Shown here: one piece after another, positions 31,805 to 41,767 of the stretch | Layout of the letters: every line of letters begins with the position of its first letter | Numbering within the stretch: position 1 is the stretch's first letter | Assembly (NCBI GenBank): GCA_038247415.1 | Contig: JBBRUX010000021.1 | Span: 3,207-67,206 of the forward strand | Direction: 5' to 3' | Source of the DNA: Chitinivibrionales bacterium | GTDB lineage: Bacteria; Fibrobacterota; Chitinivibrionia; Chitinivibrionales; WJKA01 | Length of the DNA stretch: 64,000 nucleotides | Made by a program: the position numbers and the translations under genes | Notes under the pieces: generated by a model | What the model saw: the letters and a program-made list of their open reading frames with translations, nothing else | What the model was told of the DNA's origin: nothing | The model's database searches: none

Positions 31805-33349
31805 ATGCCAAATCTTATTAACAATAGCCCTTCGGCACTGCCCTATATTACCGTAGTAGTACCCGTTTACAATGAAGAATATACGCTCAAAACAACGCTC
31901 GAAAGTCTACAGTCGCAAGATTATCAAGGTCGTTTCGACATTCTTGTTGTTGATAATGCCTCAACCGATACAAGCGCTGAAATTGCCCGATCTATGGGGG
32001 TGATGGTTGTTTCAGAACTCCGTAAAGGCTATGTGCATGCAGTACGCGCAGGTTTTGGTGCTGCTCCGGGAGACATCATAGCGTGCACTGATGCAGATAC
32101 CTTCAACTCAAAAACATGGCTCTCCCAAATCGCCCACAATCTGACAGTTCGCGGTGCGGTTGCGTGTAGCGGATCTTTTCTTTTTAACGATGGAAGCAAA
32201 CTTATAAAATTTATTGGTTGGGCATTTGGTCGCCTCAATTGGCATTTGGCTGGTGCTAACATGGCAGTCTGGAAATGGGCGTATCAAAAGGTTGGTGGTT
32301 TTAATCACGATATTAATTTGGGAGCCGATGTAGAAATTGGATTTCGGATAAAAAAACTTGGGAAAATAATAATTGACAGAAAGCTTATTTCGTACACTTC
32401 CTCCCGAAGATTTCAAGTTGCTTTTTGGCAAACCCTGTTTCTGTATTACTGCAACGACCTTTGGCTTATCTTATTTCGCAAGCCGCTTTTTTATGAGTTT
32501 CCCATAATCCGTATTCCGCAAAAAATCTTTAAACGCCAAGTCCCTCATCTGCAATGGGGATTGTTAACGCTTATTCTTATCATTTCTTGTTCCTGGTTTA
32601 TAGAACGTCCTGGCAGTGACCTTTTAGGAACGGTCATGCACCAGGGGTCTGCATCACTTAAAACGGTAGCCCTTACCTTTGATAATGGACCTTCACCGCA
32701 AACACTCCAGGTACTGGATATTCTTAAGCGATATTCTGTAAAAGCAACCTTCTTTATGGCAGGAAAAGAAATTGTCCGGTATCCAGATATTGCCAGACAA
32801 GTAATTATTGACGGACAGGATATTGGCAACCATACCTTCAGCAACTCCATCTGGTCACCCATCGAGCTTTCTCATCAAATCGATAAAGAGCTCGATTCAA
32901 CGTCGTCACTTATCCAAAAGACAACAGGTATTTCGACCAAGCTTTTTAGACCACCCCACGGGCTACGATCCCCCTGGATGATCTCTCAAGCTAATAAAAA
33001 AGGCTATACAGTCATTTTATGGAATATTGCACCCAACGAATGGCTCTATCCCGATAAGAACAGAATAATTCGTGATGTTAGCAAGCGTGTTTCGCCAGGA
33101 TCGATTATTCTTCTTAATGATGGGGCCTCATCCGATGCTCCACCCCTTGCGCATCAACATACCATTGCTGCATTGCCCGGAATTATCGAGAATCTTCAAG
33201 CCCAAGGGTATCATTTTGTTACTATTTCCGAATTGCTCGTGGAAGAAGGCTATCAACAACCCGCTTCCAGTGCCTGGGCGAAATTTTCTTTTGATTCCCT
33301 CATCTCTCTCACCGCCCGCATCTACGAAGCTCGTCCCTTTAAAAACTAG
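31805..33349 (+). CDS. bifunctional GT2 glycosyltransferase / CE4 polysaccharide deacetylase (NodB homology) membrane protein
   Basis: The GT2 part contains ITVVVPVYNEEYTL..DILVVDNASTDTS..CTDADT. Central TM segments follow. The CE4 part contains VALTFDNGPSPQT..ATFFMAG..IGNHTFSN..LFRPPHG. Confidence 0.85.
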   Translation: MPNLINNSPSALPYITVVVPVYNEEYTLKTTLESLQSQDYQGRFDILVVDNASTDTSAEIARSMGVMVVSELRKGYVHAVRAGFGAAPGDIIACTDADTFNSKTWLSQIAHNLTVRGAVACSGSFLFNDGSKLIKFIGWAFGRLNWHLAGANMAVWKWAYQKVGGFNHDINLGADVEIGFRIKKLGKIIIDRKLISYTSSRRFQVAFWQTLFLYYCNDLWLILFRKPLFYEFPIIRIPQKIFKRQVPHLQWGLLTLILIISCSWFIERPGSDLLGTVMHQGSASLKTVALTFDNGPSPQTLQVLDILKRYSVKATFFMAGKEIVRYPDIARQVIIDGQDIGNHTFSNSIWSPIELSHQIDKELDSTSSLIQKTTGISTKLFRPPHGLRSPWMISQANKKGYTVILWNIAPNEWLYPDKNRIIRDVSKRVSPGSIILLNDGASSDAPPLAHQHTIAALPGIIENLQAQGYHFVTISELLVEEGYQQPASSAWAKFSFDSLISLTARIYEARPFKN

Positions 33350-33896: not shown

Positions 33897-35231
33897 GTGA
33901 AGGAAAGGACTACTGTTTCTGCTGAACCCGAAATGTGTGCCGACACAGAGCCCCCCAGTACCCACAGCAGAAAAAAATCTCCCGCTGCTTCATCGTTTGC
34001 ACTTTCGGGCGCTAAGCTTGACACATCTTTAGAGGCTTCAATTGCTTCGGTAATTGCAAGCAATCGTCCATCTTCCAAATCTACTGCATTTCGCAAGAAA
34101 TACTTTCCCACTGCAACGCTTGCCGACTGGAACGATTGGAAATGGCAGCTTACTAATCGACTCACCACAGCCGAAGACCTTGAACGGTTTCTCGAACTTT
34201 CGCGCGCAGAGCGGAGTGCATTTACAAACGATAGCACCGTTCTTCCCTGTGCGGTTACGCCCTATTACGCATCGCTTTTGCGAGACAGTGAGCCCCTCAA
34301 CCCTTTGCGGCGCAGTGTTATTCCAACCGACAATGAACATGTCCGCTCGCCGGGCGAAGCAGACGACCCTCTGTGTGAAGATCTTTACAGTCCACACTCC
34401 TGTCTTGTGCACCGATATCCAGATCGTGTACTCTTTCTTGTTACCACACAATGTGCCACCTACTGTCGTTACTGCACCCGATCTCGCATGGTTGGCAAGC
34501 CACACGAAACAGGCACGCGCGCATCGTGGGAAGAGGCTCTTGACTATATACGATCAACGCCAACCATTCGAGATGTTCTTATTTCTGGTGGAGATCCACT
34601 TACGCTTGCCGATGACCAGCTCGAATGGCTCCTCTCGCGCCTTCGTGCAATTCAACACGTTGAGATAATCCGGATTGGAACCAAAACACCTGCAGTTCTC
34701 CCTCAGCGTATCAATCTATCACTCATTCGCATACTCAAGCGGTTCCATCCTTTATTTATAAGTATTCATATCACGCACCCCTCAGAGCTTACCCGAGAAA
34801 TGAATCAAGCCTGTATCCGGCTTGCAGATGCGGGAATTCCTTTGGGAAGCCAAACCGTACTTTTGGCAGGTATCAATGACGATGCAGAAACCATGAAACT
34901 TCTTACCCAATCGCTTCTCAAAATTCGCGTTCGTCCCTATTATCTTTATCAATGCGATCCCATCACCGGCTCATCTCACTTTAGAACCCCCATTGCAAAA
35001 GGTATCGATATAACGCGAAGCCTTCGAGGGTTTACAAGCGGTTATGCGGTGCCAACGTTTGTTGTTGATGCACCCGGCGGTGGTGGCAAAATTCCACTCG
35101 CTACCGATTATACGGTCGGTAAGGAAGGTGGCGATTTAATCCTGAGAAATTTTAGAGGAGATCGATTCCGCTATCCAGATTATGCAGGTGCCACTCCTGT
35201 GCGATTTAAGCAAATGGAGCTTCCACTGTAA
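33897..35231 (+). CDS. kamA: lysine 2,3-aminomutase (KamA-family radical SAM enzyme)
   Basis: The GTG start is preceded by AAGGAG. The sequence contains DWNDWKWQLTNR, HRYPDRVLFLVT, the radical-SAM cluster motif CATYCRYCTRS, YQCDPITGSSHFRT and VVDAPGGGGK. Both Asp residues that I recall binding the lysine epsilon-amino group (in QCD and VVDAPGGGGK) are present. Confidence 0.9.
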   Translation: MKERTTVSAEPEMCADTEPPSTHSRKKSPAASSFALSGAKLDTSLEASIASVIASNRPSSKSTAFRKKYFPTATLADWNDWKWQLTNRLTTAEDLERFLELSRAERSAFTNDSTVLPCAVTPYYASLLRDSEPLNPLRRSVIPTDNEHVRSPGEADDPLCEDLYSPHSCLVHRYPDRVLFLVTTQCATYCRYCTRSRMVGKPHETGTRASWEEALDYIRSTPTIRDVLISGGDPLTLADDQLEWLLSRLRAIQHVEIIRIGTKTPAVLPQRINLSLIRILKRFHPLFISIHITHPSELTREMNQACIRLADAGIPLGSQTVLLAGINDDAETMKLLTQSLLKIRVRPYYLYQCDPITGSSHFRTPIAKGIDITRSLRGFTSGYAVPTFVVDAPGGGGKIPLATDYTVGKEGGDLILRNFRGDRFRYPDYAGATPVRFKQMELPL

Positions 35232-36214
35232 TGCACCTTGGTATTACCTACGATCTCCGAGAAGAGTATCTTGCTCTTGGGTATTCTCTCGAAGCAACTG
35301 CCGAATTCGACAGCATCGAAACGATCGATGCTCTTGACAAAAGTCTTGTATTGTTAGGGCACACAACTTCCCGCATAGGAAATATCCGGTCGCTTGTTGG
35401 AGAATTGGCTCAAGGAAAAACGTGGGATCTTGTTTTTAACATTTCCGAAGGAATGTACGGATTTTCCCGTGAAGCACAAATTCCTGCACTGCTGGATGCC
35501 TATGCCATTCCCTACACATTTTCCGACCCGCTCACGCTCACGCTCGCCTTGCATAAAGGTATGGCCAAGCGCGTTGTTCGTGATGTGGGAATACCTACTG
35601 CACCATTTGCAATAGTCAATGTTTTAGCCGATTGTGATACCCTTACGTTGCCGTATCCTCTTTTTGCAAAACCAATTGCAGAAGGTACTGGAAAGGGAAT
35701 TACCGCAGCTTCCCGCATTTCATCATGTCAAGATCTTAAAGAAACTTGTTCGGTACTTCTTGCAACTTATAAACAACCGGTGCTTGTTGAAACGTATCTT
35801 GCAGGAAGAGAATTTACTGTTGGCATAACTGGATATGGAGCGCTGTCTAGCGTTATTGGTAGTATGGAAATTGTGATGCGCGATAAAGCAGACCAGGGTG
35901 TATACACGTACCGAAACAAAGAGTTTTGCGAAGAACTTGTAGACTACCGCACTACAGCCGACGCTGATGCACAAAAAGCCGAAGCAGTTGCCCTAGCTGC
36001 CTGGAACGCGCTCGGTTGTCGCGATGCAGGAAGAGTTGACATACGGCTCGATGGGACAGGAGTTGCGCATTTTATTGAAGTGAATCCAGTAGCAGGAATG
36101 CACCCGACACATTCTGATCTTCCCATGATTTGTTCTCTGAATAAAATATCCTATACAGAACTCATTGAGCGTATTATCAAATCTGCAGCAGCGCGCTCTG
36201 CACTCTGTTTATGA
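35231..36214 (+). CDS. D-alanine--D-alanine ligase-family ATP-grasp enzyme (paralog 1)
   Basis: The start overlaps the kamA stop (TAATG). ATP-grasp strings are LFAKPIAEGTGKGI, LVETYLAGREFTVGI and RVDIRLDGTGVAHFIEVNPVAG. Confidence 0.8.
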   Translation: MHLGITYDLREEYLALGYSLEATAEFDSIETIDALDKSLVLLGHTTSRIGNIRSLVGELAQGKTWDLVFNISEGMYGFSREAQIPALLDAYAIPYTFSDPLTLTLALHKGMAKRVVRDVGIPTAPFAIVNVLADCDTLTLPYPLFAKPIAEGTGKGITAASRISSCQDLKETCSVLLATYKQPVLVETYLAGREFTVGITGYGALSSVIGSMEIVMRDKADQGVYTYRNKEFCEELVDYRTTADADAQKAEAVALAAWNALGCRDAGRVDIRLDGTGVAHFIEVNPVAGMHPTHSDLPMICSLNKISYTELIERIIKSAAARSALCL

Positions 36215-37209
36215 GTAACCCTTGTGTTAAACATATAGCTATTGTTTTTAATGCCCCCTCAGCGCACGCGCTTATTGATGAAGCAGACGTCCTGGTTGAA
36301 GTTGAAGCCGTTAAACATTCTCTTGTGCAGCTTGGCTTTGCAGTTTCGGTTTTTGGAGCTACGGTTAATCTTCTTCTTCTCAAGGATTTTCTCCTTAGTC
36401 AAAAACCCGACCTTGTTTTTAATCTTACCGAATCACTCGATGGTAAAGAACGGTTAATTTGTGCCATCCCCTTGCTTTTAGATACTCTTAACATTCCCTA
36501 CACCGGTAGTGCGGCAGATCCGATGTATCTCACAAGCTGCAAAAAAATAGCCAAAGAAATTATGCTCCTCAAGGGCATTTCAACCGCTCCGTACGCAATG
36601 GCTCAAGAAATCTTGGTCCAAAAATCCATTTCCTTCGATCCGCCTTATATCATTAAGCCTATCGATACTCACGGATCCCTAGGTATAGAAGAAGATTCTA
36701 TTTGTGAATCTTTAGAGTGTCTGCTCGTTAAACTCTCTGGCTATTCTAAAGCTGCTTTATCTCGGATAATGGTTGAAGCATTTATTGACGGTCGCGAATT
36801 CAATATTTCTCTTATGGGTAATGCTCGCTCTCTAGAAATTATGCCACCCGCAGAAATTCTTTTCGAGGATCATTTTACGCACAAGCATAATCTTGTAGGG
36901 TATAAGGCAAAATGGATCGAGGACGCTCCAGAATATGCCGGAACACCCAGATCTTTTGATTTTGGATCATCCGATGCACCTCTGCTTATCCGCGTCAAAT
37001 CCTTAGCACGCGAAGCTTTTCTTGCATTTGATCTGCACGGCTATGCTCGCGTTGACATGAGAGTCTCTATGGCAGGCGTTCCCTATGTTTTAGAAGTAAA
37101 TGCAAATCCTTGTATTTCTCCCGAAGGCGGCTTTGTTTCGGCTACTGCCATGGGAGGATACGATTATACAGCGACACTACACAAAATCGTGGAGATTTCG
37201 CAATGGTAA
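36211..37209 (+). CDS. D-alanine--D-alanine ligase-family ATP-grasp enzyme (paralog 2)
   Basis: ATGA overlap with paralog 1. ATP-grasp strings are YIIKPIDTHGSLGI, VEAFIDGREFNISLMG and RVDMRVSMAGVPYVLEVNANPCISP. Confidence 0.8.
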   Translation: MSNPCVKHIAIVFNAPSAHALIDEADVLVEVEAVKHSLVQLGFAVSVFGATVNLLLLKDFLLSQKPDLVFNLTESLDGKERLICAIPLLLDTLNIPYTGSAADPMYLTSCKKIAKEIMLLKGISTAPYAMAQEILVQKSISFDPPYIIKPIDTHGSLGIEEDSICESLECLLVKLSGYSKAALSRIMVEAFIDGREFNISLMGNARSLEIMPPAEILFEDHFTHKHNLVGYKAKWIEDAPEYAGTPRSFDFGSSDAPLLIRVKSLAREAFLAFDLHGYARVDMRVSMAGVPYVLEVNANPCISPEGGFVSATAMGGYDYTATLHKIVEISQW

Positions 37210-37715
37210 CTTTTCGTACCGATGTTGTGCCCTACGACTCTAAAAATGTTAAGGCTCTTGTAGCATCCACGGGAGTTTTTCACGACTACGAAATAGACGT
37301 TGCCCAAGAACTTGTTGACGCCAGGCTTGAGCAGGGTATCGCAAGTGGCTATTTTTTTATTTTTGCGGAACGCGAAGGCGCTCTGGTCGGCTATTCTTGT
37401 TTCGGCCCCATAGCCTGTACTCGCGCGCGATTCGATTTATACTGGATTGCTGTTCATAAAGCATCGCAGCATTCTGGTATTGGTAAATTAATTCACGAAG
37501 AAACAGAACGCGCAATCGCATCTGCACAGGGTGAGCGACTTTACGCAGAAACGTCCTCCACGCTTCATTATACGCCAACACGGCGGTTTTACGAATCAGT
37601 AGGATATTCTCTTGTAGCTCAGATCGCAGATTTTTATGATAACGGGGATGACAAATGCATTTTTGAAAAGAAAATTGTAACCCAGTATAGTTCTTACGTT
37701 GATGAATTCTTTTAA
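37203..37715 (+). CDS. GNAT-family N-acetyltransferase
   Basis: The ATG at 37203 overlaps the upstream stop by 7 nt. The acetyl-CoA-binding segment is LYWIAVHKASQHSGIGKLIHEETERAI, followed by TRRFYESVGY. Confidence 0.8.
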   Translation: MVTFRTDVVPYDSKNVKALVASTGVFHDYEIDVAQELVDARLEQGIASGYFFIFAEREGALVGYSCFGPIACTRARFDLYWIAVHKASQHSGIGKLIHEETERAIASAQGERLYAETSSTLHYTPTRRFYESVGYSLVAQIADFYDNGDDKCIFEKKIVTQYSSYVDEFF

Positions 37716-37746: not shown

Positions 37747-39930
37747 ATGCGATATTTCTTTTTTTGTGTACTTGCACTCGCCAGCCTCCACTTTATACCA
37801 TCGCTTGCTTTTGCAGAAAGCACTTCTGATTGTACCCAAAAACCTATTGCATCTGGGTATGGTGCCGATGGCAGATTTACCGTGAAGCTCGATAGCATTA
37901 TGCTCAAAGGGGAAGGAAACGATCGCGTGTATTTCTTTCGGCCTGATACAGCGGGCCAATTTCCTTGTATCTTTTTTTGTCATCGCTATGGAGATATTTC
38001 ATATGAAGAATACTCTCACCTTATCAATCATCTGGTAAGCCGAGGAAATTGTGTTATCTATTCGCCCGCACGCACAATAGATTTCACCGAAAAACAAATT
38101 CGCAGCACCGCAATTCCCTACACAGGGATCGTTGATGCTGTCAATTATTTTAAGACATATCTCGATACAACACTTATTGGGTGTATTGGTCACAGCTTTG
38201 GCGCCGGTGCAGCCCCTGCAATTGTTTACAACTATCTTACCGAAAAGCATTGGGGCACTCGTGGTTCCTATCTTTACCTCATGTCTCCTTGGTACGCCTA
38301 CGGTAACGACATACGCAAACTGAGGGCATTTCCTTCACAAACTTCTCTTGTTGTGCAAATTTTCGATCAGGATCGGATCAATGATCCACGCATTGGTCTT
38401 GACATTTTCAATTCTATTGATATCCCATTGCAGCGCAAAAAATTTCTTATTGTGCGCTCAGATAAAAGAGGGGATTGTCAACTGAGGGCAGACAACTTTA
38501 CTCCGTTTAGTAATAATGCCATACTGGGAGAAGAAAACAGTTTAGATTATTATGGGATTTTTAGGATTGTCGACGGCTTAGCAAACTATGCCTTTTACAA
38601 GGACACGAGCGGATACTCAATTGCCCTGGGCGGTAGTGGCGCGCGCGATATCACGATGGGACAATGGCCCGATGGTATCGGCATAAGGACAATGCTTGCT
38701 CTGGATTCACCTTCCGTTTATTTTCAAAATGGCCTTTTTGTAAACAATTGGGAAAGCTTACGCAATCCCCGCATCGATGCAACACGCTTTCGTCAGGCGA
38801 GAAAGGTTTTTGGGGGCTTTATTAAAAAAACTGCCAAACTCTATGCTACAACAATAAAAACTGCTCTCAAAGAGCCCCGCGTACAGGTCGCTAATCTCGA
38901 GTCTGAGGGTCTTGATATAATGCCTAATCCAATACTTCACGGATTCGGCGCGGACAGCAGCTTTGGCATGACGGTTGACAGCTTTCCACGACCGGATCTT
39001 CCTTTTCCTATTCAACAAAAAGGGTGGGTGTACGTTTTTCGTCCAAACGGCATTCACATCAAAACACCTGTTCTTTTCATGTTGCACGGCTATATCGGCC
39101 AAGATTACCAAAGTTTTCAACCGCTTATATCGCATATTGTCAGTAAGGGGATTTCGGTTGTATATCCTACATATCCGTTTTTGCCCAAATTTATAAATGA
39201 AAAAGGCGTTTTAGATAAATACGCTTATGTGTATGCTGGCCTCGATTCGGCACTTGTACGCTTTTCGAAAGGCTTTGATACTACCCGCATCGGTTTCTTT
39301 GGGCAATCGTTTGGCGGGGGCATGGTTCCTGCTGTAGCCTATAAAATGATTGTTACCAAGCACTGGGGAAGCATGGGATCCTTCATGTTTATGAGCGCCC
39401 CTTGGTATTCGTTTGATATCACACCCGAACAGCTTGCATCATTTCCGTCTAGCACCATGCTTCTTATGCAGGTCTATAACGACGACTGGATGAATGATCA
39501 TGAAATGGCAGTTGACATTTTCAATTCAATTGGTATTCCTCAAAGTCAAAAGGATTTTGTAACACTCTATACCGATTCTCTGGATGGTTACACAATGCTT
39601 GCTAATCACTTTTTGCCCTACGGTGTCAAGAATATGTATGGGCAGCTCAATTTACACGATTATTACGGCGTATTCAGATATTTCGATGCTCTTGCAGCCT
39701 ACTCGTGGTATGGTACAGAAAGCGGCAAATCTATCGCATTGGGCCATGGGAGTAAAAAGCAATGCTTCATGGGCACATGGCCAGATGGCAAACCTATTCG
39801 CCCTGCGTCGGTTTTATTGCAGCCAAAGGCACTTCATCCAGAATTGCAATATGTTTATTCTTGGGACAACAAACTCAATCCGCGACGCCTGGTATCTGCT
39901 CCCGTTGCGCAAGACTCTTTATCACACTAG
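37747..39930 (+). CDS. secreted tandem-duplicated alpha/beta-hydrolase (dienelactone hydrolase / chlorophyllase-like)
   Basis: The signal peptide is MRYFFFCVLALASLHFIPSLAFA. Two homologous halves each carry a GxSxG motif: CIGHSFGAGAAPAIVYNYLTEKHWGTRGSYLYLMSPWYAYG and FFGQSFGGGMVPAVAYKMIVTKHWGSMGSFMFMSAPWYSFD. Confidence 0.75.
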   Translation: MRYFFFCVLALASLHFIPSLAFAESTSDCTQKPIASGYGADGRFTVKLDSIMLKGEGNDRVYFFRPDTAGQFPCIFFCHRYGDISYEEYSHLINHLVSRGNCVIYSPARTIDFTEKQIRSTAIPYTGIVDAVNYFKTYLDTTLIGCIGHSFGAGAAPAIVYNYLTEKHWGTRGSYLYLMSPWYAYGNDIRKLRAFPSQTSLVVQIFDQDRINDPRIGLDIFNSIDIPLQRKKFLIVRSDKRGDCQLRADNFTPFSNNAILGEENSLDYYGIFRIVDGLANYAFYKDTSGYSIALGGSGARDITMGQWPDGIGIRTMLALDSPSVYFQNGLFVNNWESLRNPRIDATRFRQARKVFGGFIKKTAKLYATTIKTALKEPRVQVANLESEGLDIMPNPILHGFGADSSFGMTVDSFPRPDLPFPIQQKGWVYVFRPNGIHIKTPVLFMLHGYIGQDYQSFQPLISHIVSKGISVVYPTYPFLPKFINEKGVLDKYAYVYAGLDSALVRFSKGFDTTRIGFFGQSFGGGMVPAVAYKMIVTKHWGSMGSFMFMSAPWYSFDITPEQLASFPSSTMLLMQVYNDDWMNDHEMAVDIFNSIGIPQSQKDFVTLYTDSLDGYTMLANHFLPYGVKNMYGQLNLHDYYGVFRYFDALAAYSWYGTESGKSIALGHGSKKQCFMGTWPDGKPIRPASVLLQPKALHPELQYVYSWDNKLNPRRLVSAPVAQDSLSH

Positions 39931-39947
39931 CTTATCAGGAAACAACC

Positions 39948-40361
39948 ATGGGCACTCTCTCTTTTTGTCACGACTATGAACCGCTTTCCTATCCAGAATC
40001 GGACCTCATCAAAGTAGCCGCGTCAATCTTTAAAAAAGAGAACGTTAAAAAGTCGACTTCTATTACTGTGATCCTCTGTTCCGATTACACAATCCGCAAA
40101 CTCAATAAGCAGTTTCGGAAGAAAGACAAAGCCACCGATGTTCTCTCTTTCCCCATTACTTCCGATGATGGTTTTTTGGGGGAGATTTACATCTCGCTAC
40201 AACGGTGTGCAGTCCAAGCAAAAGACTATGGATGGAGCTACAACGAAGAAATTTCCCGGATGCTTGTTCACGGCATTTTTCACTTGCTTGGATACGACCA
40301 TCTAAAAAAAACCGAAAGAGCTGCCATGGAAGCCAAAGAACGCCTGTATTGCTCCTTTTAG
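39948..40361 (+). CDS. ybeY: rRNA maturation RNase YbeY
   Basis: The internal ATG at 39948 follows AGGA. Motifs are TDVLSFP and the zinc motif HGIFHLLGYDH. Confidence 0.9.
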   Translation: MGTLSFCHDYEPLSYPESDLIKVAASIFKKENVKKSTSITVILCSDYTIRKLNKQFRKKDKATDVLSFPITSDDGFLGEIYISLQRCAVQAKDYGWSYNEEISRMLVHGIFHLLGYDHLKKTERAAMEAKERLYCSF

Positions 40362-40477: not shown

Positions 40478-41767
40478 GTGAATTTGTACGCGCTTCAATT
40501 GATACTTCTATTTCTGTGTGTTGTAGGGTCCGCTTTTTTTTCTATAATTAAAATTGTTTTTATTACCTTTAGAGCCAATCAAGCAATTGTAGAAGACGAA
40601 CTCCCAGAAAAATCGATACTTGCCATAGAGGCAATCCTTAAAGACACCCTACGATTTGCTGCTACAATCTCTCTGGGAAAAAGTGCCTCAACTGTAGGAA
40701 CCGCAATTCTTGGAGTTGTTTTTTTAATGTCCCATGTTCCATCAAGAACCCCCACCCTCATATTCTTTTTTGTTATTATGCTTTTGGCTCTGGAAATATG
40801 TGCCTACACCATTCCCCATGCCCTTGCACTGCGGTACTACCGGGCCCTGGCACCCCTCTGCATTGCACTTTACAAGAGCATAAGTTGGCTCTTATTGCCT
40901 GTTGTCATTATTCTGAGTACGCTTTCCGCCATTATTTTATCTCTTGTTAAATACGATAAACGCTTAGCCTTTTTATCCGAAGAAGAAAAACAGAGAATTA
41001 GCAAAACCGAAGACGCCGAAACGCATCTCGACGAATCGGAAAAAGAAATGATCCATAGCATCTTTGAAATGAGCGAAACCATTGTCAAAGAGATTATGGT
41101 CCCCCGTATCAATGTAACAGGAATACCAATAACTGCCGATCTTAAAAACATTTTGGGTATTATCCGCTCGCAAGGCCATTCACGCATGCCGGTGTATAAA
41201 GATACGATAGATTCTATTGTTGGTATCCTGTATGCAAAAGATATTCTTGGGTGGCTTGCCGAAAACAAAGAGACTGCAACCTTTACCCTTAACACGGTGA
41301 TGAAAAAGCCACATTTTGTGCCAACAACTAAAAAGATCGACGAACTCATGCGTGAGTTCAAACACAAACATTTACATATTGCAATTGTTGTCGATGAATA
41401 TGGCGGGACCGCAGGGATGGTCACCATGGAAGACATTCTGGAAGAAATTGTAGGAGAAATCAACGATGAATACGATGTTGAAGAAGCAGAAATAGTAGAG
41501 GTGTCAGAGAATATCTACACCATCGATCCGCATATCGATCTCTCCGATCTTGAGGAAAAACTCTCTATCGACCTCGGGCTCAATACACCAGGATACACCA
41601 CACTCTCTGGTCTTATTTATCATGAATACGGAGATATTCCAACCGAAAATGGAATTCTTGACTTTCGCTCGATTCGCATTAAAGTTCTCAAGATGAATCA
41701 CCAGCGCATAGAGCGCGTTTCCGTTACTGTCCTCTCTCCCAAAAAATCGGACAACGATCCCGAATAG
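40478..41767 (+). CDS. hemolysin-family / CorC-type protein (DUF21-CBS-CBS-CorC_HlyC)
   Basis: GTG start. The protein has four N-terminal TM segments, a CBS pair (IMVPRINVTGI.., HIAIVVDEYGGTAGMVTMEDILEEIVGEI) and a C-terminal transporter-associated domain. Confidence 0.9.
   Translation: MNLYALQLILLFLCVVGSAFFSIIKIVFITFRANQAIVEDELPEKSILAIEAILKDTLRFAATISLGKSASTVGTAILGVVFLMSHVPSRTPTLIFFFVIMLLALEICAYTIPHALALRYYRALAPLCIALYKSISWLLLPVVIILSTLSAIILSLVKYDKRLAFLSEEEKQRISKTEDAETHLDESEKEMIHSIFEMSETIVKEIMVPRINVTGIPITADLKNILGIIRSQGHSRMPVYKDTIDSIVGILYAKDILGWLAENKETATFTLNTVMKKPHFVPTTKKIDELMREFKHKHLHIAIVVDEYGGTAGMVTMEDILEEIVGEINDEYDVEEAEIVEVSENIYTIDPHIDLSDLEEKLSIDLGLNTPGYTTLSGLIYHEYGDIPTENGILDFRSIRIKVLKMNHQRIERVSVTVLSPKKSDNDPE

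Follow-up and report, generated by a model that had tools for sequence, protein, structure and literature searches.

A translationally coupled aminomutase, double-ligase and acetyltransferase cassette in a Chitinivibrionales bacterium as a candidate route to an acetylated beta-lysine amide

What could be produced by a gene set in which a radical SAM aminomutase is followed by two ligases resembling those of cell-wall synthesis and by a small acetyltransferase is the question raised by a locus of a Chitinivibrionales bacterium (Fibrobacterota; GenBank assembly GCA_038247415.1). The window analysed, that is, the whole stretch of 64,000 nucleotides taken from contig JBBRUX010000021.1 (positions 3,207 to 67,206), carries on its forward strand the cassette considered here. 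According to the open reading frame (ORF) calls it comprises the genes for a KamA-family aminomutase (33897..35231, 444 aa, GTG start), for LigA, an ATP-grasp ligase with the fold of D-alanine--D-alanine ligase (Ddl) (35231..36214, 327 aa), and for LigB, a second ligase of this fold (36211..37209, 332 aa); these are followed by the gene of a small GNAT N-acetyltransferase (37203..37715, 170 aa from its ATG). The pathway that it encodes is real and widespread and has not been described, although the enzymes are of known kinds. The reading to which we incline, with modest confidence, is a small-molecule route to an N-acetylated amide or short peptide that contains beta-lysine.

Translational coupling links all four genes. 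The initial annotation had described them as lying on the same strand and overlapping at all junctions, and base-by-base reading of 33897-37715 bore this out exactly. At the KamA/LigA junction, TAATG (35229-35233), the stop codon TAA (35229-35231) and the following ATG share A35231, and the LigA/LigB junction consists of ATGA at 36211-36214. LigB and the GNAT gene overlap by 7 nt, the ATG of the latter (37203-37205) lying within the final codons of LigB, whose TAA occupies 37207-37209. The longest ORF of the GNAT gene would begin at TTG 37110; the start at 37203, preceded by GGAG 8 nt upstream, is supported because the alignment to PDB entry 2R7H begins at residue 2. A GGAG is also found about 10 nt upstream of the KamA GTG at 33897, a start which is less certain, Met13 being the alternative.

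With 340.3 bits the KamA protein exceeds the cut-off of the KamA-subfamily model TIGR00238 (199.2), and it matches the Pfam families Radical_SAM and LAM_C. Its best equivalog is AblA (TIGR03820), for which the score of 461.5 bits lies under the cut-off of 525.4, and scores below the cut-off were likewise obtained with the models of glutamate 2,3-aminomutase (419 vs 650), arginine 2,3-aminomutase (373 vs 600) and EpmB (TIGR03821, 254.6 vs 369.3). Residues 68-434 align to the solved Clostridium lysine 2,3-aminomutase (LAM) 2A5H with an E value of 7e-126, and the protein is closer to this enzyme than to E. coli EpmB, to which it is 34% identical. In the alignment D354 and D391 correspond to D293 and D330 of 2A5H, and K398 corresponds to K337, the lysine that carries pyridoxal phosphate (PLP). 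This Asp pair reportedly holds the epsilon-ammonium group of the lysine substrate, and the glutamate enzyme has other residues in its place. Among 68 full-length homologues from cassette loci, the CxxxCxxC motif (C186, C190 and C193 here) and the D293 equivalent are kept in 68/68, and the D330 equivalent and the PLP lysine each in 67; the assignment of both lysine-type Asp residues made initially thus holds in the alignment to the solved enzyme as well as across the family. Past GGGGK only about 40 C-terminal residues follow, among them no Cys cluster, which is a difference from the clostridial enzyme, and the AlphaFold2 model of the whole protein has a mean predicted local distance difference test (pLDDT) score of 82.7. 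The prediction that KamA is a lysine 2,3-aminomutase, turning L-lysine into beta-lysine, is well supported by these comparisons.

Both ligases match PF07478 (Dala_Dala_lig_C), LigA with an E value of 1.7e-25 and LigB with 1.7e-16. They score below the Ddl models NF002378 (146 and 98 bits for LigA and LigB, respectively, cut-off 243) and TIGR01205 (113.6 and 77.3, cut-off 245.65), and LigB is the more divergent of the two. When 78 LigA and 54 LigB sequences were aligned to E. coli DdlB from NC_000913.3, whose numbering is used here, the ATP-, Mg- and catalytic residues K97, K144, E180, E187, K215, R255, D257, E270 and N272 proved invariant in all of them. The residues of the D-Ala site are replaced, in a manner conserved within each ligase family and different between the two. 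Thus Y216 is Glu in LigA (73/78; E231 in the present protein) and Trp in every LigB (54/54), L282 is Asp in LigA (78/78; D296 here) and Gly in LigB (54/54), and S150 is Thr in LigA and Ala or Gly in LigB; S281 is retained in LigA only, and G276 has become Cys in LigB. The AlphaFold2 model of LigA (pLDDT 90.7, predicted template-modelling score 0.89) has Ddl structures as all of its top 50 fold matches, with template-modelling scores of about 0.67-0.82 at 17-26% identity. Profile searches of the PDB with both ligase families gave Ddl first, with L-amino-acid ligase and purine ligases far behind, and no characterised ligase closer than Ddl. Because the catalytic residues are all kept, the D-Ala-site residues replaced and the Ddl cut-offs missed, LigA and LigB are predicted to be active ATP-dependent amide ligases of Ddl fold which do not join two D-alanines. 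The earlier description of two distinct Ddl-family ATP-grasp ligases is confirmed to this extent, the proteins being catalytically intact as judged by their residues and not cell-wall Ddl as judged by score.

The fourth protein is a plain 170-aa acetyltransferase domain with matches to Acetyltransf_7, Acetyltransf_1 and Acetyltransf_10. In NCBIfam no AblB-type match was found, the sole match being rimI with 33.9 bits, under its cut-off. The GNAT aligns to 2R7H with an E value of 5.6e-41, roughly half of the aligned residues being identical; this entry, presumably a structural-genomics one from a Desulfovibrio, is deposited as 'putative D-alanine N-acetyltransferase of GNAT family', so that its function is putative by name. 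The distinction that had been drawn from the ablA-ablB pair is upheld, since the GNAT is not AblB-type in the NCBIfam scan and two ligase genes intervene.

The initial annotation had proposed a survey of gene neighbourhoods for a KamA gene followed by two ligases and a GNAT. Such a survey, in which the window proteins were compared by tblastn with 83 distinct loci from more than 10 phyla (the denominators being the loci with enough flank), showed that the genes are co-conserved. KamA lies directly upstream of LigA in 65/76 loci, LigB downstream of LigA in 62/71 and the GNAT downstream of LigB in 53/65, and all four genes occur together in 46 of the 61 full-flank loci. That phyla so far apart have the same gene order puts chance well out of the question as the source of the arrangement. 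Moreover, the genes flanking the cassette in the window show no similarity to any of the 83 related loci, and the unit therefore consists of exactly four genes.

LigA is the most conserved ligase and the one most tightly linked to KamA, with about 56-64% identity across phyla. It has thousands of relatives, the best 120 of which are all 58-64% identical, and in a scan of one genome per species a relative was present in at least 536 species-level genomes. Named relatives come from Gammaproteobacteria, Alphaproteobacteria, Syntrophaceae, KSB3, Calditrichales and Nitrospirota, and in each of three that were looked up the order was KamA-LigA-LigB-GNAT. The best 80 LigA loci belong to Planctomycetota, Desulfobacterota, Myxococcota-labelled bins, Alphaproteobacteria, Spirochaetota, Fibrobacterota, Bacteroidota, Ignavibacteriota, KSB1, KSB3, Bacillota, Lentisphaerota and Sumerlaeota. 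The carriers are hundreds of bacterial species, mostly anaerobic, and their samples are of freshwater, soil, groundwater, digester and sediment origin, both marine and non-saline sites being represented.

Variation among the related loci bears on the nature of the product. Fusions of LigB with the GNAT (LigB::GNAT, 506-534 aa) were found in 10 of the best 120 LigB homologues, and the two fusion contexts looked up were both KamA-LigA-LigB::GNAT; these fusions tie the GNAT step to the LigB step. A further gene, for an accessory deacetylase of about 580 aa, is present in 20/82 loci, where it either separates LigB from the GNAT or follows the latter (for example, given as locus and positions, L012:10802-12601, L029:8999-10774 and L078:9013-10761), and is not found in the window. 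In this protein a weak GNAT-like domain at the N-terminus is combined with a full histone-deacetylase-family domain, in which the catalytic motifs PGHH, DxDxHHGNG and EGGY are kept in 19/20 copies. In the 749-aa copy of locus L036 the cassette GNAT is fused at the C-terminus too. Comparison with the acetylpolyamine amidohydrolases (APAH) 9GKZ, 6PHR, 3Q9B and 3MEN gave E values of 6.7e-69 to 1.4e-58, versus only about 1e-32 with histone deacetylase-like amidohydrolases (HDAH) and single HDAC6 catalytic domains. Acetylpolyamine amidohydrolases strip acetyl groups off small aliphatic amines, and the accessory protein is, as judged by this likeness, a putative APAH-type enzyme acting on a small-molecule acetyl-amine. 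Together with the LigB::GNAT fusions it points to a small acetylated amine rather than to protein modification.

Shorter versions of the cassette exist as well. Two-gene KamA-LigA loci without LigB and GNAT occur in KSB3, Bacillota and some Planctomycetota, and in two of them the next gene encodes a small-solute exporter type, namely a MarC/LysE-type translocator (L008:8101-8745) and an AzlC-type protein (L052:7078-7830). In a third the pair is followed by MarR and an HlyD-type efflux fusion protein (L043:8176-10132). As a link between export and the pathway the exporter genes, seen beside two loci, are a weak indication.

On these grounds the following route may be proposed. KamA would turn L-lysine into beta-lysine (3,6-diaminohexanoate), a step for which the sequence support is good. 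LigA, using ATP, would then form an acyl-phosphate and subsequently an amide bond involving beta-lysine. In Ddl, S281 holds the carboxylate of the second substrate; LigA retains this residue yet adds E231 and D296, and might join beta-lysine to, or onto, a basic amino acid. Since these two acidic residues were gained in the second-substrate pocket, the partner is probably another basic amino acid, for instance beta-lysine or lysine. LigB, whose pocket would be roomier with its Gly, Ala and Trp substitutions, may add a further amide bond or cap the compound, and the GNAT may acetylate the remaining free amine. The APAH-type enzyme of about a quarter of the related loci, though not of the window, would reverse this acetylation. 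The product would be an N-acetylated compound resembling a di- or tripeptide of beta-lysine, which could serve as a cytoplasmic solute or as a polyamine-like cation with its charge set by acetylation; export in some lineages may occur.

Several points weigh against this proposal. The product and the ligase substrates are inferred, and the reading of the ligase pockets comes from alignment to DdlB and not from a ligand-bound structure. KamA lies under the AblA equivalog cut-off, which makes another substrate, such as arginine or ornithine, possible. In fifteen of the 61 full-flank loci at least one cassette member is missing within 7 kb. The carriers are not specially saline, which speaks against a classical, purely salt-driven osmolyte. 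Finally, the conserved E-P-P tail on KamA, described below, is not explained by a plain small-molecule pathway.

This tail comprises about residues 1-67 of KamA (33897..34097, forward strand) and has no equivalent in clostridial LAM. It had been pointed out as an unusual extension of about 60 aa; the extension is real, because the alignment to 2A5H starts only at residue 68, and it is not peculiar to the KamA gene of the window, a disordered tail being a family-wide feature. Nearly every cassette KamA carries such an extension, its median length ahead of the LAM core being about 80 residues with the longest-ORF calls used. The tails are otherwise variable and of low complexity, the sole conserved element being acidic-x-E-P-P-[S/G], the local copy of which is T-E-P-P-S at residues 17-21 (33945..33959, forward strand). 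EPP[SGDP] was found in 58/68 cassette KamA tails and K/D/Q-PP variants in 5 further, E18, P19 and P20 are nearly invariant in an alignment of 61 sequences, and the motif sits 30-113 residues ahead of the catalytic core. It is not present in either of the Bacillota KamA-LigA loci, whereas other two-gene loci keep it. In the AlphaFold2 model residues 1-40 have pLDDT below 50 and are predicted to be disordered, and residues 43-55 form a short helix; with residues 1-40 left at this level, no docking of the tail onto the KamA core is predicted. On the boldest view the motif has a role of its own: it might serve the ligases for docking or as a carrier arm, or else act as a proline-proline translation gate.

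Other accounts of the cassette were weighed against the small-molecule route. The same enzymes could serve another purpose, namely the synthesis of a cationic beta-lysine peptide that is exported and bioactive (for example, as an antibiotic, signal or metal ligand); acetylation by the GNAT would then protect the producer or give a pro-form, with activation by the deacetylase. The acetylation/deacetylation pair in a quarter of the loci would suit such a peptide, as would the MarC/LysE- and AzlC-type exporter genes or the efflux fusion protein beside the two-gene versions and the precedent of the streptothricin acetyltransferases, small GNATs whose inactivating reaction is the acetylation of a beta-lysine residue on its beta-amino group. 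The account is nevertheless unlikely, as there is no exporter, immunity gene or regulator in or beside the window operon and no LigA on 72,556 plasmids; furthermore, the identity of about 60% in LigA across phyla and its partly phylum-clustered tree suggest conserved physiology and not a fast-evolving specialised metabolite. It is also conceivable that the substrate is not lysine and that KamA makes beta-arginine or beta-ornithine, the remaining pathway being unchanged. No equivalog model was passed, AblA giving 461.5 versus 525.4 and arginine 2,3-aminomutase still 373, but the lysine enzyme model gave the best score of all, identity to the solved LAM is high and the Asp pair for the epsilon-amine is kept in 67-68 of the 68 homologues; the glutamate-type model, of an enzyme in which that pair is reportedly replaced, scores lower. 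A different KamA substrate is accordingly regarded as quite improbable.

Two further accounts place the chemistry on a macromolecule. The E-P-P-[S/G] tail of KamA could act as an acceptor or carrier arm, one ligase adding lysine or beta-lysine to a Glu side chain in the manner of LysX on LysW, and the reactions would then proceed on the tethered substrate. LysX and RimK are ATP-grasp enzymes able to acylate protein carboxylates, and a motif kept in 58-63 of 68 KamAs on a low-complexity linker of 30-113 residues, in a tail predicted to be disordered, is what might be expected of a swinging arm. There is little probability in this idea given that the ligases are Ddl-type and not RimK/LysX-type, that the core cassette has no release enzyme, that KamA retains the Asp pair binding a free epsilon-ammonium group, that the accessory deacetylase belongs to an acetylpolyamine class acting on small molecules, and that both Bacillota KamA-LigA loci dispense with the motif. 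The remaining account, in which the target would be EF-P (as with EpmA/EpmB) or peptidoglycan (as with a true Ddl), starts from the fact that beta-lysine is the EF-P modifier in E. coli and from the Ddl fold of the ligases; E-P-P-G/S is, in addition, among the types of proline-proline motif that need EF-P in order to be translated, and could couple KamA synthesis to EF-P activity. However, tblastn with E. coli EF-P and EpmA found neither efp nor epmA in the window or the 83 loci, and KamA is only 34% identical to EpmB and under its model cut-off. Peptidoglycan is disfavoured by the replacement of the D-Ala-binding residues, by scores about 100-145 bits short of the Ddl cut-offs and by a window locus without neighbouring mur or fts (cell-division) genes. 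The acetylpolyamine-type deacetylase, too, suits a small amine better, and modification of either EF-P or peptidoglycan is very improbable.

With the small-molecule route retained as the favoured reading, comparison with described systems places the cassette nearest to AblA/AblB and to KamA/YodP of B. subtilis, which make the compatible solute N-epsilon-acetyl-beta-lysine. As in these, a KamA-family lysine 2,3-aminomutase is co-transcribed with a GNAT; beta-lysine would be the committed intermediate and an acetylated amine the likely end group. The cassette differs in having two Ddl-fold ligases between aminomutase and GNAT, in a 170-aa GNAT without AblB match and in a KamA that remains under the AblA cut-off, carries the disordered E-P-P tail and does not possess the C-terminal Cys cluster of clostridial LAM. 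With DdlA, DdlB and the Van ligases the two ligases share the three-domain ATP-grasp fold and the ATP-, Mg- and catalytic residues, in contrast to the replaced D-Ala-site residues, the scores of 146 and 98 versus 243 and a context without cell-wall genes.

The nearest analogy for a GNAT and an ATP-grasp ligase working on a small acetylated peptide may be the Ngg/AsnO pathway, which is said to make N-acetylglutaminylglutamine amide (NAGGN). NAGGN is an acetylated dipeptide solute made without ribosome or non-ribosomal peptide synthetase (NRPS), and Ngg is an ATP-grasp ligase fused to a GNAT, to which the LigB::GNAT fusions would be analogous. Ngg, however, has an ATP-grasp domain of another type than Ddl and the opposite order of domains, and its building block is glutamine; the cassette, for its part, has no amidotransferase, and its building block would be a beta-amino acid made by a radical SAM enzyme. 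The 20/82 loci with both GNAT and APAH-type deacetylase recall the acetyl on/off pair formed by SpeG-type GNATs and APAH, from which they differ in the extra N-terminal GNAT-like domain on the deacetylase and in the amine, which would be a beta-lysine amide and not a classical polyamine; the window has no such pair. In EpmB/EpmA, as proposed for the cassette, a KamA-family aminomutase supplies beta-lysine for an ATP-dependent amide bond, but EpmA is a paralogue of lysyl-tRNA synthetase and not an ATP-grasp enzyme.

Regarding the history of the cassette, the LigA tree is more phylum-clustered than trees with shuffled labels, with an unresolved backbone, and the LigA of the window pairs with a Spirochaetales bin and not with the sole Fibrobacterota bin. 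The GC content of the cassette is that of its surroundings, which together with the tree points to descent mixed with old transfer and not to recent arrival. A mobile origin was rejected, as no LigA copy occurs on 72,556 plasmids and the GC content matches. When expression data were sought, the window sequence was found to be present in DNA runs only, from sediment, soil and freshwater metagenomes.

Additional genes accompany the cassette in certain lineages. Twelve Desulfobacterota loci have sigma-54 activator genes nearby upstream (e.g. L041:248-1663), and in eight Desulfobacterota loci a conserved small cytoplasmic protein of about 90 aa with the motif VIPVDWDE, which belongs to no Pfam family, is encoded just upstream of KamA (e.g. 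L001:6245-6514). Four Planctomycetota loci (L006:6451-6996, L067:6407-6886, L080:6512-6997 and L081:6505-7035) have KamA and LigA separated by a Cys-rich ORF of about 160 aa (CxRCxxHxxTCCQ ... CRLYP), whose product may assist the radical SAM enzyme as a metal or Fe-S helper. None of these three is found in the window. Of 73 loci only one, from a Fibrobacterota metagenome-assembled genome (L026:492-507, TGGCATAGTTGTTGCA), has a match to the strict sigma-54 promoter pattern ahead of KamA, and the window has none. Scans of 20 related loci at the Rfam gathering threshold gave tRNAs only and no riboswitch, and in the operon the scans for sigma-70 promoters and terminators scored no higher than in shuffled sequence. 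PADLOC returned 0 families for all four cassette proteins, and a known anti-phage defence role was rejected since no model matched.

In the window, a 152-aa ORF without a Pfam family lies upstream of KamA, and at 31805-33349 there is a 514-aa protein in which a GT2 glycosyltransferase domain is joined to a polysaccharide deacetylase (CE4) domain. Downstream of the GNAT gene follow a secreted tandem alpha/beta-hydrolase, ybeY and a CNNM/CorC gene. The hydrolase (37747-39930) is a 727-aa secreted protein of two alpha/beta-hydrolase halves, with Chlorophyllase and Abhydrolase_3 matches, and its gene begins 31 nt past the GNAT stop behind its own GGGAG; because it has no counterpart in any related locus it is considered a neighbour outside the cassette. 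The gene at 39945-40361 is an ordinary ybeY endoribonuclease gene, and that at 40478-41767 encodes a CNNM/CBS/CorC transporter. In the Syntrophaceae locus L001 a CNNM/CorC gene is found about 6 kb downstream of the cassette too, which is probably a coincidence.

The absence of a characterised product for the four-gene arrangement, as first stated, agrees with the family libraries and the full-text literature, in which no described product was found. Full-text searches, whose coverage is thin for subscription journals, gave no paper on the cassette gene set, and the full texts consulted on the topic mention AblA/AblB or COG lists only. Neither a lack of co-conservation nor a match to a characterised pathway, both named initially as grounds for refutation, was found. 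A four-enzyme pathway without known product is present in at least several hundred species-level genomes, and at 3.8 kb it is small enough for direct testing. It is tempting to speculate, at rather low probability, that KamA-LigA-LigB-GNAT with the optional APAH-type deacetylase represents an unrecognised class of beta-lysine-based, polyamine-like amide metabolites, which would be made without ribosome or NRPS, would have their charge switched by acetylation and would be common to anaerobes of more than 10 phyla. If the compound is identified, two new substrate specificities would be established within the Ddl family and the annotation 'D-alanine--D-alanine ligase' would be corrected for many, probably thousands, of proteins. 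For the physiology of the anaerobes prevailing in sediment, digester and soil it would represent a new beta-amino-acid metabolite, be it a solute, a polyamine analogue or a signal.

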